A stretch of 64,000 bases of DNA, taken from positions 1-64,000 of IMG/VR virus record IMGVR_UViG_3300044691_000429. One strand, written 5' to 3'. Positions 3,147 through 24,700 of the stretch are shown piece by piece. How positions within the stretch are numbered: the first letter of the stretch is position 1; each line of letters opens with the position of its first letter. This stretch comes from a virus. Both the position numbers and the translations under genes were made by a program. The notes beneath the pieces are model-generated. The model searched no databases, had not been told where the DNA came from, and saw nothing but the letters and a program-made list of their open reading frames with translations.

Positions 3147-3407
3147 GTGGCTGATGAACCTGAGATCCCCGCTGACCTGATCGCTCTCCAGCGCCGTTTT
3201 GACGCCGCGCACGCCGCGGTGGTGGCCGCGTCCGCCCACCCGGGCCCGGTTGCCGACTGGCCGGCGGACGCGGTGGCCGAGCTGCGGCGGGCCCGGGAGG
3301 CGGAGCGGCAGGCGACGGTGGACCTGTACCGGGCGCGGGAGGGGACGCCGTTCGCCGCGTACCCGGCGCAGGAGCGGCTGCGGGACGCGGCGGCCGAGCA
3401 GGGGTGA
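3147..3407 (+). CDS. Hypothetical protein
   Basis: TATCCT-N6-GTG; IPADLIALQRRFDAAH helical protein. Confidence 0.6.
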   Translation: MADEPEIPADLIALQRRFDAAHAAVVAASAHPGPVADWPADAVAELRRAREAERQATVDLYRAREGTPFAAYPAQERLRDAAAEQG

Positions 3408-3505
3408 GGCGGGGCCTGTCCGCCACCGGGCTCACTCCCTATTTGTGTGCGTATGCCGCATTCGGGCACCCGACCTAGGGCAACCCCCAAGGAACGGAGC
3501 CAGCC

Positions 3506-3790
3506 ATGGTCATCAAGAAATTGCACGACATGGGCCTGCGCAGCGAGCACGCCTACCTCGCCGCGTTCGCCTCCATCGGCATGACGGTCTTCACCTGGGC
3601 CGGATCCCTCAAGGCCGATCCCAGCGCCGACCTCGCCCGCGCCGACCGGTGGGGAATTTTCGTCGGAGAGTGGGCCCCCACGTTCTTCGGCCTCGGTCTC
3701 GCGCTGTCGCAGTTCGAGCAGCAGGACGGGACGCTGGAAGAAGCCGGCGTCCCGCACATTCGCGAGGCGAAGGAGCGGGCGGCGTCCTGA
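3506..3790 (+). CDS. Small membrane protein
   Basis: GGAG RBS, GC3-rich codons, two hydrophobic segments (…ADRWGIFVGEWAPTFFGLGLAL). Confidence 0.75.
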   Translation: MVIKKLHDMGLRSEHAYLAAFASIGMTVFTWAGSLKADPSADLARADRWGIFVGEWAPTFFGLGLALSQFEQQDGTLEEAGVPHIREAKERAAS

Positions 3791-3811
3791 CGGACATGGC
3801 AGCGACGACGA

Positions 3812-3838
3812 AGCCCCCGGCCGGGGGGGTCGGGGGCT
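3812..3838. terminator. GC-rich hairpin between convergent gene and CRISPR-like array
   Basis: AGCCCCCGGCC ... GGTCGGGGGCT inverted repeat. Confidence 0.6.
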
Positions 3839-4038
3839 GTCGTAACCCCGCAGGTGCGGGGAGCAGGGTCATCCACCGACAGTTAGCCGGTTCATCCCCG
3901 CATGCACGGGGAAGGGCGGTGCTGTGAATCTGGACCACTCATCGGGATCGGTCCACCTCCGCCTGCGCGGAGAGAGGTTGCGCTATGGATCTGCGCCACC
4001 AGCCAGAACCGGTACACCCCCGCGCGAGCGGGGAGTTC
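3838..4038 (-). CRISPR. Orphan degenerate type I-E-like mini-array: 4 repeats, 3 spacers (32, 32, 21 nt)
   Basis: Minus-strand 29-nt repeats GAACTCCCCGCTCGCGCGGGGGTGTACCG (4038-4010), CCTCTCTCCGCGCAGGCGGAGGTGGACCG (3977-3949), CCCTTCCCCGTGCATGCGGGGATGAACCG (3916-3888), CTGCTCCCCGCACCTGCGGGGTTACGACA (3866-3838); 61-bp period for the first three; no cas genes recognised in window. Confidence 0.85.
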
Positions 4039-19756: not shown

Positions 19757-20407
19757 ATGAGCGACGACGACGGCATCGACCCATCGAACTCGGCGAACAG
19801 CCCGGACCCATCGAAGCCCCGCTGTTCAGCCCGCACCAGCCGTGGCCCCTGTGGGAACTACCCGGTACAGGGCGCCACTGTCTGCCGGTTCCACGGCGGC
19901 GCAGCACCCCAGGTGAAGGCGGCGGCGGGGAAGCGACTGGCGGTTGCCGAGTGGGCCCGCTCGTTCGGCGCCCCGGCGGAGGATGCCGACCCGTCGCAAA
20001 CGGTGCTGGACGAGATCCGGTGGTCCGCCGGCCACGTGGCGTGGCTGCGTGAGCGGGTCCAGGAGACGGAGCCCGAGGCGCTGGTGTGGGGTGTCGACTC
20101 CGAAGTGGAGAAAGGGGCGGGCGAGTTCACCGGCACCGACACCACCAGGGCGGCCAAGGCCAGCATGTGGGTGCAGTTGTACGGGCAGGAGCGGGACCGG
20201 CTGACGCGCATGTGCGAGGTCGCGCACCGTATGGGTATCGCCGCCCGGCAGGTGGAACTGGCGGAGCGCGTGGGCTCGCTGATGGCGGACCTGATCCGCG
20301 GTGTCCTCGGCGACCTCAGCCTGTCGGAGGAGCAGCAGCTGGTGGCGGCCGTTGCGGTGCCGCGGCACCTGCAGCTCATCGGGGGCGCGCTGGGTGGCGC
20401 TGCCTGA
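19757..20407 (+). CDS. Probable terminase small subunit
   Basis: C-x-A...C...CRFHGG motif; position just upstream of TerL. Confidence 0.75.
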   Translation: MSDDDGIDPSNSANSPDPSKPRCSARTSRGPCGNYPVQGATVCRFHGGAAPQVKAAAGKRLAVAEWARSFGAPAEDADPSQTVLDEIRWSAGHVAWLRERVQETEPEALVWGVDSEVEKGAGEFTGTDTTRAAKASMWVQLYGQERDRLTRMCEVAHRMGIAARQVELAERVGSLMADLIRGVLGDLSLSEEQQLVAAVAVPRHLQLIGGALGGAA

Positions 20408-20622
20408 TGACCGACTGGATTGACCGGATGCTCGCCGATGGGCTGGCCCGCGCCGGGGGCCTGTTCGCTCAGGAGCAGCATCTCGGGCAGCAGTTGTGGA
20501 GCGTCGGCGGGTGGCGCTGCTACGGGCGCATGATGCCCGATGGAAGCGCCTTGACGATCCGGCGTCCCGGGAAGGCGCTGGCCTACGAGATCGTCGGCGT
20601 GGACCTGGACGCCCTGAAGTGA
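20407..20622 (+). CDS. Small hypothetical protein
   Basis: TGATG coupling. Confidence 0.5.
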   Translation: MTDWIDRMLADGLARAGGLFAQEQHLGQQLWSVGGWRCYGRMMPDGSALTIRRPGKALAYEIVGVDLDALK

Positions 20623-20624
20623 CC

Positions 20625-23003
20625 ATGGCGGTGGCTCCGGGGACGCTGCACCGGTACGAGCCTTGGGGTTCGGCGCTTGATTTGATGGAGTGCCGGCTGC
20701 CGCAGGTCTTGCTGTCGGGGCCGGCGGGTACGGGCAAGAGCCGGGCGTGCATGGAGAAGCTGCACCTGATGGCGTTGGCGAACCCGGGGATGCGCGGGCT
20801 GATCGTCCGCAAGACGCGGGAGTCGCTGGGGTCGACGGCGCTGGTGACGTGGCGGGAGCACGTGGCGAAGGAGGCGATCGCCGCAGGCATCGTGTCGTTC
20901 TACGGGGGCTCGGCGGAGGAGCCGCCGCAGTACCGGTACGTGAACGGCTCGAAGATCATGATCGGCGGAATGGACAAGCCGACGAAGATCATGTCTTCGG
21001 AGTACGACGTCGCCTACGTGCAGGAAGCCATCGAGCTGACGACCACCGACTGGGAGAACATCACCACCCGCCTCCGGAACGGCAAGGTCAGCTTTCAGCA
21101 GCTCATAGCGGACGCCAACCCCGACATGCCCAGCCACTGGCTCAAGCAGCACTGCGACCGCGGCACGGCCCGGATGGTCCACTGCCGCCACGAGGACAAC
21201 CCCGTCCTGTTCAACGCCGACGGCACCATGACGGTCAAGGGCGAGGCGTACATGAAGCTCCTGGATGCCCTGACCGGCGTCCGGCTGCAACGCCTGCGCC
21301 ACGGCCGCTGGGTGTCCGCAGAGGGCATGATCTACGAAGGCTTCGATCCCACCATTCACCTGGTCGATCAGTTCCCCATCCCGGACAGCTGGACGCGTTG
21401 GTGGTCGGTGGACTTCGGCTTCACCAACCCGTTCGTCTTGCAGTGCTGGGCTGAGGATCCTGACGGCCGGCTGTACCTCTACCGCGAGATCTACAAGACG
21501 AAGACTCTCGTCGAGGACCACGCGAAGCGGATCCTGCGCGAAGTCACGGCCTGCACCAACTGCTGCGATTCCACGGCCGACAGCCACGACTGCTACGAGT
21601 GCGACCGGTGCGGCAAGACGTGGACCGAACCGAAGCCGCGCGCGATCATCTGCGACCACGACGCGGAGGACCGGGCGACGCTGGAGCGGCACCTGGGCCT
21701 GTCCACCAGCCCGGCGCACAAGTCGGTGTCCGACGGGATCCAGGCCGTCAACACCCGCTACAAGGTGGCCGATGACGGCCGCGCGCGGCTGTTCATCGTG
21801 CGCGGTGCGGTAGTCGAGCGGGACGAGGCGCTCGACGCGGCGAAGAAGCCGTGCTGCACAGAGGAGGAGATCCCGGGTTACGTCTGGGATCGCGGTACTC
21901 CGTCGCAACAACTCGCGGACAAGCCGCCGAAGGAAGTCCCCGTGAAGATCAACGACCACGGGTGCCTCATCGCCGGAACGATGGTGGCCACTCCCGATGG
22001 CGAGCGCCCCATTGAGTCGATACGCGCGGGAGATCTGGTGATGACCCGTCGCGGCGCCCGTTCGGTCGTGGCGGCGGGGATGACTTCGCCGGAAGCCGTC
22101 ACGGTGTCGGTCGCTTTGAGTAATGAAAGGGTCCTGACGGGCACGGGGAATCACCCGGTGTGGGTAGCGGGGAAGGGTTGGATTCGGCTGGATGCGTTGC
22201 GATATGACGATAAGCTGGTTGCATGTCAGACACCGTCGTCTTCCGGGGTATCAGCTTCCGTCGATACCCCGACTCGCCTCATCTCGCCCAGCGGAACTAC
22301 TACACCCCCGGCATTGCTGACCGTAAGCGAGGGGTGCAACACCTCCACATCGAGATCTGGAAAGCTCACCACGGGTGCGCCGTCCCTCCTGGCTGCGAGA
22401 TCCACCACGTCGACCTCAACCCCCTCAACAACGACCTCGCCAACCTGGCCTGCCTCACCGTGGCCGAACACAAGGAAGTCCACCGCGAGCAGGGAAGGGT
22501 ACGCGGACGAACGCCTGAGTTCCGCGCTCACCTTGACCGAATACGACCCCTCACTGTCAACTGGCATCAGTCAGCCGATGGACGCGAGTGGCACAAGCAA
22601 CATGCGGCTGAGCAGGGCCTCGGCCACGGTGAGCAGCGGTCTTCCGTCTGCGATCACTGCGGGGGCGGGTACGAAACCGCCGTTGTCCACCGCCTCGATC
22701 GCTTCTGCTCCAACAAGTGCAAGTCGGCGGCACGCCGCGAGAGCGGAGTCGACAACGAGCAGCGGTCTTGCGCACGATGCGGAACCGAGTTCACCGTCAA
22801 CCGCTACGCCAAGAAGGAATGCTGCGGTCGTGTCTGTGCGCAGCGTCTCCGCGTCGACAGGGCCCGCGCCGGTGTTCAACCTGACGGTCGCTGACCAGCC
22901 GGAGTACTTCGCCAACGGCGCACTAGTCCACAACTGCGACGCAAAACGGTACGTGGTCGCCGAGCTCGACTTGGTCGGCCGGCCGAACATTCGCTGGCTC
23001 TGA
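20625..23003 (+). CDS. terL: Terminase large subunit with intein
   Basis: GPAGTGKS Walker A, YVQEA Walker B, DANP, VDFGFTNP nuclease motif, NDHG|intein|CDAKRY. Confidence 0.95.
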   Translation: MAVAPGTLHRYEPWGSALDLMECRLPQVLLSGPAGTGKSRACMEKLHLMALANPGMRGLIVRKTRESLGSTALVTWREHVAKEAIAAGIVSFYGGSAEEPPQYRYVNGSKIMIGGMDKPTKIMSSEYDVAYVQEAIELTTTDWENITTRLRNGKVSFQQLIADANPDMPSHWLKQHCDRGTARMVHCRHEDNPVLFNADGTMTVKGEAYMKLLDALTGVRLQRLRHGRWVSAEGMIYEGFDPTIHLVDQFPIPDSWTRWWSVDFGFTNPFVLQCWAEDPDGRLYLYREIYKTKTLVEDHAKRILREVTACTNCCDSTADSHDCYECDRCGKTWTEPKPRAIICDHDAEDRATLERHLGLSTSPAHKSVSDGIQAVNTRYKVADDGRARLFIVRGAVVERDEALDAAKKPCCTEEEIPGYVWDRGTPSQQLADKPPKEVPVKINDHGCLIAGTMVATPDGERPIESIRAGDLVMTRRGARSVVAAGMTSPEAVTVSVALSNERVLTGTGNHPVWVAGKGWIRLDALRYDDKLVACQTPSSSGVSASVDTPTRLISPSGTTTPPALLTVSEGCNTSTSRSGKLTTGAPSLLAARSTTSTSTPSTTTSPTWPASPWPNTRKSTASREGYADERLSSALTLTEYDPSLSTGISQPMDASGTSNMRLSRASATVSSGLPSAITAGAGTKPPLSTASIASAPTSASRRHAARAESTTSSGLAHDAEPSSPSTATPRRNAAVVSVRSVSASTGPAPVFNLTVADQPEYFANGALVHNCDAKRYVVAELDLVGRPNIRWL
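21963..22934 (+). other. Class 1 intein (324 aa) in TerL nuclease motif
   Basis: CLIAGTMVATPDG (block A), TGNHPVW (block B), VFNLTV..PEYFANGALVHN/C (blocks F, G). Confidence 0.93.
22223..22894 (+). CDS. HNH endonuclease with C-terminal zinc fingers, nested out of frame in the intein
   Basis: LHIEIWKAHHG...EIHHVDLNPLNNDLANLACL...EHKEVH; CDHC, FCSNKC, CARC, CCGRVC. Confidence 0.88.
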   Translation: MSDTVVFRGISFRRYPDSPHLAQRNYYTPGIADRKRGVQHLHIEIWKAHHGCAVPPGCEIHHVDLNPLNNDLANLACLTVAEHKEVHREQGRVRGRTPEFRAHLDRIRPLTVNWHQSADGREWHKQHAAEQGLGHGEQRSSVCDHCGGGYETAVVHRLDRFCSNKCKSAARRESGVDNEQRSCARCGTEFTVNRYAKKECCGRVCAQRLRVDRARAGVQPDGR

Positions 23004-23046
23004 CCCACCGTAGGGTCACCATCTGTCACACATCTGGGAGGTTGCC

Positions 23047-23214
23047 ATGGGGAAGCTCTTGGCCCACGTACCGAAGAATTTCCTGCCTTTGGCCATCTTG
23101 ACAGGAGGATTTACACTCATCGCTGTAGGCTGCGGGATAATCGGCGGTTTGGGCGTGGGTCTCGTCGTCGGTGGCGTGCTCGCGTGCGTGATGCAGGCGG
23201 TGGCGTACAGCTAG
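23047..23214 (+). CDS. Small hydrophobic protein between TerL and portal
   Basis: GGAGG RBS; 55 aa MGKLLAHVPK...GLVVGGVLACV. Confidence 0.6.
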   Translation: MGKLLAHVPKNFLPLAILTGGFTLIAVGCGIIGGLGVGLVVGGVLACVMQAVAYS

Positions 23215-23227
23215 CAGAGGGGGTCTC

Positions 23228-24700
23228 ATGGGCAGAACGCTCCTGGACCCCCTCCGCAACCTCCGCAACGCCCTCCCGACCCCCGTCCCGTTCACCGCCG
23301 GCTCCGGCTCCCCCGTCGTCAACCTCCCCTGGACGTCCCGCAACGACGCGATATCCCAGATGCGCGCCATGGGCGCCGTCGGTGCGCTCTTCGCGATCGT
23401 GCACCGCACCAGCACCAGCACCGGACAGGTCAACTGGCGCCTGTGGACGAAGTCCAAGAGCGGACTCCCCGAGGACCGCAAGGAAGTCACCCGGCACGTC
23501 GCCCTCGACCTGTGGAACAAGCCGAACGACTACTACGTGCGGCAGGAGTTCGTCGAGACCGAGCAGCAGCACATCGACCTGACCGGCGAGGGCTGGTGGG
23601 TCGTCGGCCGCAGCGGGAAGGCCACGATCCCGCTGGAACTGTGGCCCGTCCGCCCCGACCGCATGGTCCCGGTGCCGCACCCCACGGAATTCCTGTCCGG
23701 GTACATGTACCTGTCGCCCGGCGGGGAGCAGATACCGCTGCTCCGCAACCAGGTCATCCAGCTGCGCATGCCCAACCCGCTGGATCCGTACCGGGGCATG
23801 GGCCCCGTGCAGTCGATCCTCCCCGACCTCGATGCGTCCCGGTACGCGGCGGTCTGGAACCGGAACTTCTTCCTCAACAGCGCCGAGCCCGGCGGCATCA
23901 TCCAGATGGACAAGAGCCTCGATGACCGCGACTTCGACCGGCTGTCCAAGCGCTGGAACGAGCAGCACAAGGGCATCGCCAACGCCCACCGCGTCGCCAT
24001 CATCGAGCAGGGCCAGTGGGTCGACCGGAAGATCACGCAGCGGGACATGCAGTTCGCCGAGCTGCGCACCATCACCTCCGACATGATCCGTGAGGCGTTC
24101 GGCATCCCCAAGTTCGCGGTCGGCGTGATCACGGACATCAACCGGGCCACCGCCGAAGCGGCCAAGGCATGGTTCGCGGAGCAGCTGACCGTGCCGCGCC
24201 TGGAGCGCTTCAAGCAGGCGCTCAACAACGACCTCTTGCCGATGTTCGGGCCGGCCGGCGTCGGCGTCGAGTTCGACTACGACAACCCGGTGCCGCCCGA
24301 CGCGGAGACGCAGAACGCGAAGCTGACCACGCAGGCCGCCGCCGCGAAGCTCCTGCGCGAGGCCGGCTACGACCCCGACGACGTCCTGTCCGTGGTCGGC
24401 CTGCCCGCGATGCGGCACACCACGACCCTCTCCCCCACCCCGACCGGGTTCGCCGAGCAGGCCGCCGCGCTCCTCGCGAAGAACAGCCGCCCGCAGGCTG
24501 CAGCGAAGGAGTGGGTTGTCGAGGCGCATGAAGACGGAGACGTCTGTCAGCCGTGTCACGACAACGACGGCCACACCTACGCCACTCAGGCCGACGCCTA
24601 CGCGGACTACCCGGGCGGCTCCGGCTACATCAAATGCCTCGGCGCGAAGAACTGCCGCTGCAAGATCGTCACACGCGGAAAGGCCAGCGACGATGCCTAA
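23228..24700 (+). CDS. HK97-family portal protein with C-terminal Cys-rich MuF-like domain
   Basis: LTGEGW, LWPVRPDRM, GMGP, FFLNSAEPGG, DMQFAELR, AFGIP; tail VCQPC...NCRC. Confidence 0.93.
   Translation: MGRTLLDPLRNLRNALPTPVPFTAGSGSPVVNLPWTSRNDAISQMRAMGAVGALFAIVHRTSTSTGQVNWRLWTKSKSGLPEDRKEVTRHVALDLWNKPNDYYVRQEFVETEQQHIDLTGEGWWVVGRSGKATIPLELWPVRPDRMVPVPHPTEFLSGYMYLSPGGEQIPLLRNQVIQLRMPNPLDPYRGMGPVQSILPDLDASRYAAVWNRNFFLNSAEPGGIIQMDKSLDDRDFDRLSKRWNEQHKGIANAHRVAIIEQGQWVDRKITQRDMQFAELRTITSDMIREAFGIPKFAVGVITDINRATAEAAKAWFAEQLTVPRLERFKQALNNDLLPMFGPAGVGVEFDYDNPVPPDAETQNAKLTTQAAAAKLLREAGYDPDDVLSVVGLPAMRHTTTLSPTPTGFAEQAAALLAKNSRPQAAAKEWVVEAHEDGDVCQPCHDNDGHTYATQADAYADYPGGSGYIKCLGAKNCRCKIVTRGKASDDA

Follow-up and report, generated by a model that had tools for sequence, protein, structure and literature searches.

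How can a phage terminase gene remain open through an intein when the same stretch of DNA also encodes a nuclease in another reading frame? This question is raised by the terL locus of IMG/VR virus record IMGVR_UViG_3300044691_000429, a complete 93-kb virus record with terminal repeats and 65% guanine plus cytosine (GC). The window, meaning the whole stretch of DNA analysed, covers 64,000 nucleotides (nt) of this record (positions 1 to 64,000; 64% GC). Within terL, a class 1 intein interrupts the nuclease domain of the large terminase, and the DNA between the two lobes of the intein carries, in the -1 frame, a gene for an HNH endonuclease. The reading that we consider probable (about 0.8) is that the two form a composite homing element, in which a mini-intein houses an out-of-frame HNH protein that is made independently of TerL. 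The components, all on the plus strand, are as follows (pLDDT, predicted local distance difference test, from AlphaFold2 models; ORF, open reading frame).

20625..23003, + strand: terL precursor gene, 792 amino acids, about 468 once spliced (ORF list; Terminase_3 and phrog_2 matches)
20625..21962, + strand: N-extein, containing the ATPase domain plus the greater part of the nuclease domain, up to ...PVKINDHG
21963..22934, + strand: class 1 intein, 324 amino acids, with C1 (CLIAGTMV...), block B T61..H64, block F VFNLTVADQPEYFANG and block G ALVHN
21963..22232, + strand: N-terminal Hint lobe, intein residues 1-90, pLDDT 91-98
22211..22216, + strand: TAAGCT, a -10-like TANNNT hexamer of putative function, 6 nt before the HNH ATG, read as intein codons GAT-AAG-CTG
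22223..22894, + strand: nested HNH endonuclease gene in the -1 frame (offset +2 relative to terL), 223 amino acids
22233..22829, + strand: intein-frame linker, intein residues 91-289, the HNH gene as read in the terL frame (+1), rich in Ser, Thr, Pro and Ala and predicted to be disordered
22830..22934, + strand: C-terminal Hint lobe, intein residues 290-324, with blocks F and G, pLDDT 94-97
22935..23003, + strand: C-extein, CDAKRYVVAELDLVGRPNIRWL plus stop codon, holding the conserved TerL nuclease motif DAxRY

An earlier sequence-only reading of this DNA had claimed that terL stays open through a 324-residue intein inserted at NDHG/CDAKRY (the slash marks the junction here and below), and its coordinates, C1 residue and HN/C+1 end were confirmed by the ORF list and by the Pfam matches Hint_2 and PT-HINT, both of which exceeded their cut-offs in the intein; the Pfam model Intein_splicing stayed below its own (28.8 vs 35.8). 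The open terL frame extends from a GTG at 20496 to 23003, and the ATG at 20625 is the likely start, since homologues begin to align at about residue 9 of the protein counted from it. The insertion point lies within the conserved TerL nuclease motif DH-G/C-DAxRY. All the hallmarks of class 1 inteins (C1, T61..H64, H323-N324 and C+1) are present in the window, the C-terminal end of the intein reading ...VFNLTVADQPEYFANGALVHN and then CDAKRY, and C1, H64 and N324 are invariant across 41 homologues. The C-extein aligned with intein-less alleles of the form ...DDHG/MDA(M/L)RYMVA... and with 77 intein-less relatives.

Between blocks B and F the intein frame had been described as low-complexity sequence of Ser, Thr and Pro, and this was borne out by composition, Ser, Thr, Pro and Ala together making up 62% of the linker versus 34% of the Hint lobes. 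The AlphaFold2 model of the terL-frame product showed a Hint fold of two lobes, and residues 93-283 (about 190 amino acids) had a pLDDT of about 40 and no secondary structure. The lobes matched gp41-1 (E = 5e-6) and the DnaB and RecA mini-inteins in Foldseek searches (E = 5e-6 to 1e-4). From these models, the intein frame is predicted to yield a mini-intein that carries a long disordered tether.

The other frame tells of a different protein. Both frames are free of stops over 672 bp, as had been noticed, and the claim that the -1 frame at 22223-22894 encodes a 223-residue HNH nuclease with zinc fingers, ending inside block F, was supported by a Pfam match to HNH_3 (PF13392; 47.1 bits against a cut-off of 24.8, E 1.8e-12), by a match to phrog_15471 (8e-36) and by the presence of eight zinc-ribbon cysteines. 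The protein is arranged as an HNH_3 domain (residues 40-83), a helical linker and two CxxC..CxxxC zinc ribbons. Its TGA stop sits within intein block F ('VFNLTV'), and therefore the HNH tail 'GVQPD' is block F read in the other frame. The HNH-frame product was modelled by AlphaFold2 with a confident fold (mean pLDDT 94.9), and the top-ranked solved relative was I-HmuI (1u3e; profile E = 8.4e-4 on the HNH core). Among 44 nested copies with 33-67% identity, 23 residues are invariant, including H61, H62, N70, N74, H83 and all eight zinc cysteines, and the HNH core is uninterrupted in all 75 copies. In some HNH copies (L018-L024 and others), what looked like internal stops proved to be natural C-termini that had been overrun by tblastn.

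A tblastn search for other inteins with an off-frame HNH, which the sequence-only reading had proposed as a check, found homologues with the same layout. HNH homologues were located within the annotated terL genes of Tetrasphaera phage TJE1, Acinetobacter phage Highwayman, Clostridium phage phiCDHM19 and a Rhodobacteraceae phage, all four with a -1 offset and an intein position identical to those of the window; TJE1, Highwayman and phiCDHM19 are cultured phages. By scanning IMG/VR, at least 589 matching stretches were obtained; the nested layout was found, with the same frame offset and insertion site, in 75 of the 91 viral loci examined, and also in 25 of 39 loci from one-genome-per-species assemblies. 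The nested loci cover 29-70% GC and extend from actinobacteria to Bacteroidota, cyanobacteria and archaea, the named assembly hosts including Streptomyces, Frankia, Nocardiopsis, Corynebacterium, Prevotella, Bacteroides, Nostoc, a Luteolibacter metagenome-assembled genome and Woesearchaeota. The nested terL ORFs of the viral loci are about 720-1000 amino acids long and end in '..VYNLTVE..EYFANGxLVHN/C.DAxRY'. The region itself gave no match by megablast against 50,697 phage records and is therefore without close cultured relatives.

The continuity of the terL frame follows the nesting. Across the HNH gene, the number of terL-frame stops was 0 in 5/5 nested phage copies versus 1-12 in 6/6 non-nested homologues, and the probability of an open terL frame by chance, as estimated by codon shuffling, was P < 0.001 in the phages of 31% and 39% GC. 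Existing annotations show one frame at a time: phiCDHM19 (L004) is annotated with a single 800-residue terL across the intein, whereas the related phi CD119 (L007, AY855346, 778-2595) is annotated with a short 'ter2' (778-1746) and an ORF3 (1897-2595) in the HNH frame, so that pipelines appear to choose one frame or the other.

Conservation of the nested frame had been set as a test of the dual-coding idea, and it was examined by comparing 294 pairs of loci for differences per site by codon position. In the N-terminal Hint lobe, differences per site were 0.44/0.38/0.67 at terL codon positions 1/2/3, the pattern that a gene read in this frame should give. Within the overlap they were 0.39/0.37/0.60 at HNH codon positions 1/2/3, that is, substitutions collect at the third positions of HNH codons, and amino-acid identity, at 0.49 for the HNH frame, fell to 0.28 for the terL frame, close to the 0.26 of the third, non-coding frame. 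These comparisons indicate that constraint, which follows the terL frame in the Hint lobe, passes to the HNH frame within the overlap. As judged from the wobble pattern that follows the HNH frame, the 23 invariant residues and the intact cores, purifying selection acts on the HNH gene, and all that is required of the overlapping intein frame is that it remain open.

The distribution of the cassette was then compared with that of its host gene. The nearest cultured TerL proteins are those of Thermobifida phage P1312 (60% identity to the N-extein) and Streptomyces phage Dagobah (56%), which points to an actinobacterial host for the window phage; both are intein-less and read through the insertion site as ...DDHG-MDA(M/L)RY.... 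Among the 80 closest IMG/VR TerL relatives (50-73% identity), 77 lack both the intein and the HNH gene and three have both. In more distant loci, the identities to the window, computed by BLASTP, were as follows.

L017: N-extein 26%, Hint-N 64%, HNH 53%
L025: N-extein 24%, Hint-N 64%, HNH 48%
L030: N-extein 22%, Hint-N 54%, HNH 53%
L042: N-extein without BLASTP match, Hint-N 57%, HNH 46%

The identities of Hint and HNH correlate (r = 0.55), indicating that both travel together. Conservation of the cassette far above that of the exteins, combined with a patchy spread, fits the signature expected of a homing element at a conserved catalytic motif.

The +1 cysteine is already present in many intein-less relatives ('DHG-C-DAxRY'; L150, L157, L159, L165, L168 and others), the residue elsewhere being Met, Val or Ala; L165 reads DDHGCDAKRY, the same as the predicted spliced product of the window, and the intein-less allele of L137 contains GACCACGGCATGGAC. 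A Cys allele of this kind may be a target site that needs no change, or it may be what a precisely removed intein left behind. One further IMG/VR TerL relative, L203, has an intein start and an HNH match, and its terL frame closes 165 codons past the junction; it may be another split or degraded copy.

Signals for separate expression of the HNH gene were sought around its start. At the aligned HNH N-terminus, ATG is present in 44 and GTG in 10 of 55 distinct loci, the median distance to this start from the preceding stop in the HNH frame being 12 nt (9 nt in the window). In 24 of the 55 loci a TANNNT hexamer precedes the HNH start at a spacing of exactly 6 nt, versus 0.5 expected per offset, and among loci with GC of 0.55 or higher this spacing of 6 was found in 16/23, the window included. 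The hexamer codons specify Asp-(Lys/Arg/Ile)-Leu, with GAT used for 13 of 14 Asp residues vs a 28% background and AGA or AGG for Arg in 6/6; codon choice at this site therefore opposes the GC bias. In the window the HNH ATG spans the terL codons GCA-TGT, and neither this ATG nor the T, first A and last T of the hexamer can be altered without changing the terL-frame protein. Many loci without the hexamer have a GGAGG-like Shine-Dalgarno sequence at the same position, as in phiCDHM19 and the Rhodobacteraceae phage. The presence of one or the other signal suggests independent expression of the HNH gene. More specifically, it is about an even bet that the hexamer serves as a -10 element giving a leaderless HNH mRNA in actinobacterial hosts, and that initiation elsewhere is driven by the internal Shine-Dalgarno sequence.

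Several observations weigh against this picture of an independently expressed homing nuclease. The HNH ATG of the window is without a Shine-Dalgarno site (dG -4.7, 29th percentile), and a scan of 21700-23300 for E. coli-type promoters and terminators found none. The TANNNT hexamer coincides with a conserved intein peptide (RYxD-K/R-L), and selection may instead act on its T and A as part of a TAA or TAG stop in the HNH frame, such as the TAA at 22211-22213 in the window. Since the loci are phylogenetically related, the enrichment statistics for TANNNT overstate independence. Taken alone, the two open frames over 672 bp in the window are unremarkable at 64% GC and are weak evidence, because shuffling of synonymous codons in the HNH gene leaves the terL frame stop-free with P = 0.13. 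As to structure, alignment of the HNH model with I-HmuI (1u3e) by VIA-align gave only a modest match (Z 5.8, root-mean-square deviation 6.8, 110 residues), and a Foldseek search of the PDB with the whole HNH model returned only insignificant zinc-finger matches.

The proposal of a dual-coding, free-standing-type HNH gene housed in a mini-intein, made from the letters of this single locus, has nevertheless held up against about 100 loci, the switch of constraint, the invariant HNH and zinc residues, and the existence of free-standing homologues adjoining terL. The description given by the sequence-only reading proved right on every point that was checked. According to the composite-element reading, the class 1 mini-intein would be translated within TerL, with its Hint lobes joined by the disordered spacer of about 190 residues, and would splice in cis to give the active 468-residue TerL. 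The spacer DNA would serve as the gene, in the -1 frame, for an I-HmuI-like HNH_3 protein with a double zinc ribbon, the terL frame there being merely stop-free. The HNH protein would be made separately from its own ATG, in the high-GC window phage probably from a leaderless mRNA specified by the TANNNT -10 element 6 nt before the ATG, and in many lower-GC relatives from the Shine-Dalgarno site embedded at the same position. It would then nick or cut the intein-less terL of co-infecting relatives near the insertion site, and repair would copy the intein and the HNH gene together. We infer splicing because the catalytic residues are intact and terL is essential; the route of HNH expression, the cleavage target and homing are likewise our inferences from the locus and its relatives.

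Four other explanations were considered. An assembly or sequencing artefact, in which two compensating indels mask an ordinary in-frame HNH intein, was the refutation foreseen by the sequence-only reading, and the origin of the window in a metagenome-assembled virus record speaks for it. Against it, about 100 independent loci of 29-70% GC, isolated and sequenced phages included, show the identical -1 arrangement; the HNH ORF has its own start just past an in-frame stop, and its own stop; and no in-frame version of the HNH cassette was seen among 130 loci. Because the layout is conserved across so many loci, sequencing error is excluded, and the artefact retains a negligible probability. If ribosomes translating terL underwent a programmed -1 frameshift, with a fusion of TerL-N, Hint-N and HNH as the product, this would account for the HNH gene lying in the -1 frame at every locus of this family, and likewise in the EndoVII-type inteins of Gordonia phages. 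Such a fusion is rejected as very improbable, since the HNH start is closely preceded by an in-frame stop (the distances given above leave scarcely room for a slip site); moreover, ATG or GTG stands at the aligned N-terminus in 54/55 loci, promoter-like or Shine-Dalgarno-like hexamers precede the HNH start, and the HNH is a stand-alone gene in split-intein relatives.

The nested HNH could also be an unexpressed relic, the spacer of a vertically inherited mini-intein retaining the imprint of an old gene, as the lack of a Shine-Dalgarno site before the window ATG and the tendency of spurious ORFs to stay open in high-GC DNA would allow. This is distinctly unlikely, given that substitutions track the codon positions of the HNH frame, that the HNH motif and the eight zinc cysteines are among the residues invariant in the 44 nested copies and none of the 75 cores is interrupted, and that the protein has a confident fold, a patchy distribution and a cassette conserved above the exteins. 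Another possibility is that the HNH protein is a domesticated cofactor for packaging, similar to HK97 gp74, and was placed in terL for co-regulation rather than homing. Non-nested homologues always adjoin terL or terS, terminase-associated zinc-ribbon HNH nickases are known (PMC3592412), and the same idea has been raised for brucellaphages (PMC4422536). Packaging factors of the HK97 gp74 type are, however, short PF01844 proteins co-conserved with the terminase, and the window HNH is neither: it is a 223-residue HNH_3 protein of the I-HmuI type, it is absent with terL intact from 77/80 of the closest TerL relatives and from P1312 and Dagobah, and its cassette moves between unrelated TerL families. 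The cofactor explanation is therefore considered unlikely.

Relatives of the nested HNH gene were also found in other arrangements. Free-standing homologues lie directly beside terL or terS in Acinetobacter phage BP10, Pseudomonas phage FBPa53, Sphaerotilus phage SN1, Salmonella phage PhiSTP1 and Exiguobacterium phage EauM-23, and these are without Hint flanks. The possibility that the non-nested homologues are intron-encoded was dismissed, an Rfam scan of 19 such loci having detected no group I or II intron. A split layout was identified in five loci of low to mid GC and Firmicutes-like character (L010, which is Lactobacillus phage CL2, and L058, L105, L116 and L120), in the order TerL-N plus the N-terminal intein half (IntN) ending in a stop, the HNH gene, and an ORF for the C-terminal half (IntC) plus C-extein that overlaps the 3' end of the HNH gene. 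In CL2 (KR905067, 473-2774), the ORF for TerL-N and IntN ends at 1954 ('...AHDH/CLTGDT...VVRVR', then stop), the HNH gene occupies 1967-2590, and an unannotated ORF within 2490-2774 encodes IntC and the C-extein ('...DVYNMEVESHHNFAVDGGFIVHN/CMDATRY...'), so that the terL of this cultured phage looks naturally split by the same cassette. As read from these gene orders, the family covers free-standing, fractured (split-intein) and contiguous dual-coded states. In Brochothrix phage BL3 (L006, 2238-2411), only the C-terminal zinc-ribbon part of HNH is left (57% identity over 58 amino acids), straddling the end of terL (gp2) and gp3; this remnant looks like a decayed free-standing copy beside terL.

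The layout of an out-of-frame nuclease within an intein has already been described (2012-2015, 2025 and 1998), and the window represents a separate lineage, apparently a very large and widespread one. Brucellaphages Tb and Pr (Perisivirus) carry a terL intein with a nested out-of-frame HNH gene (NC_019446; Virol J 2015, PMC4422536). NC_019446 annotates gp07 as terL 'intein present' with the nested gp08, and the layout was verified in Brucella phage Tb (L136, HNH 3170-3856). There, as in the window, a zinc-ribbon gene of the HNH superfamily lies wholly inside the intein of terL, on the same strand and in another frame, and terL is open across it. The brucellaphage intein is, however, inserted in the ATPase domain (residues about 175-506) rather than in the C-terminal nuclease motif, its HNH is in the +1 frame rather than -1, and the encoded PF01844 protein has N-terminal zinc ribbons and a C-terminal HNH, the reverse of the domain order in the window; the two HNH proteins share just a 54-residue local match (E = 1e-7). 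Gp2 of Gordonia phage Affeca, the example of Gosselin et al. (2025), is closer in frame: the lobes of its terL class 1 intein enclose a nuclease ORF in 'frame 3' (= -1), and the in-frame stretch is unstructured, a layout that was verified (L094, nuclease 1386-1841). Its nuclease is a PF02945 Endonuclease_7 of 151 amino acids, unlike the window HNH (BLASTP E = 1.5), and its insertion is at the ATPase motif TRWHEDDL and known only from a few Gordonia DE1 phages. For intein nuclease ORFs, an origin by invasion of the intein by a free-standing homing endonuclease gene (HEG) has been proposed (Gosselin et al. 2025, bioRxiv 10.1101/2025.01.02.630785).

Three unrelated pairings of a terL intein with a nuclease are thus on record: an HNH_3 protein with an intein at the nuclease motif, an EndoVII protein with one at the ATPase motif, and a PF01844 protein with one inside the ATPase domain. 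With two of these in the -1 frame and one in +1, capture of an out-of-frame nuclease by terL inteins has arisen several times independently.

Fractured genes, with split inteins and a free-standing HEG between the halves, were described by Dassa et al. (2009; PMC2677866). They are similar to the present family in having a free-standing HEG at the endonuclease-insertion point of the intein, and the five split loci including CL2 match that layout. The window differs in that its terL frame is continuous, its intein contiguous and its HEG overlapping, and the HEGs of the fractured genes are GIY-YIG and Vsr-like rather than HNH. Both Dassa et al. (2009) and Gosselin et al. (2025) had predicted such a series of free-standing, split and dual-coded states. 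In I-HmuI (1u3e), an HNH nicking homing endonuclease encoded in an intron of Bacillus phage SPO1, as in the window protein, separate DNA-binding modules come after an N-terminal beta-hairpin and the HNH core; I-HmuI ends in a helix-turn-helix, whereas the intein-housed window protein ends in two zinc ribbons. Overlapping frames are also known from the cyanobacterial DnaX intein with an out-of-frame LAGLIDADG homing endonuclease (Gorbalenya 1998, as cited; bioRxiv 10.64898/2026.09.14.751524) and from the hidden HNH homing nuclease of ShiLan (PMC11855218). In these systems, as in the window, an overlapping-frame nuclease shows purifying selection in its own frame and a relaxed host frame, and leaderless initiation has been discussed for actinobacterial hosts. 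The DnaX system differs in host gene and nuclease (dnaX and LAGLIDADG), and the ShiLan element is without an intein. Within the limits of our literature search, no paper linking an intein to TJE1, phiCDHM19 or Obolenskvirus was found.

Inteins with a shifted-frame homing nuclease are not rare, since a large family occupies one terL site in phages of several bacterial phyla and in archaeal viruses. Annotation pipelines miss this family by calling either the long terL or the HNH gene rather than both, and mis-annotated terL genes such as the probably split one of CL2 can now be flagged. The family could serve as a test bed for the length of disordered insert that is tolerated by a Hint domain, for the sharing of sequence by overlapping genes when one of them needs only an open frame, and for the interconversion of inteins, split inteins and free-standing homing genes. 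The conserved TANNNT or Shine-Dalgarno signal offers a concrete and testable model for the expression of a nested selfish gene. A wider proposition, to which we give slightly less than even odds, joins these points: one cassette would display all the stages of nuclease acquisition (free-standing, split and dual-coded), with a -10 element written into the intein codons of high-GC members 6 nt before the ATG giving a leaderless mRNA, thereby uncoupling the timing of the homing nuclease from late terL, and with an embedded Shine-Dalgarno sequence in low-GC hosts.

The neighbourhood of terL is an ordinary head and packaging module, consisting of a phrog_3678 gene, a 71-residue ORF, terL, a portal gene and a gene for the head-maturation protease. 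The 71-residue ORF (MTDWIDRML...; 20407-20622) begins at the stop of the phrog_3678 gene (19757-20407) and ends 2 nt before the terL ATG. The position at which a small terminase would be expected is taken by these two tightly packed small genes, neither of which matched a named terS family.

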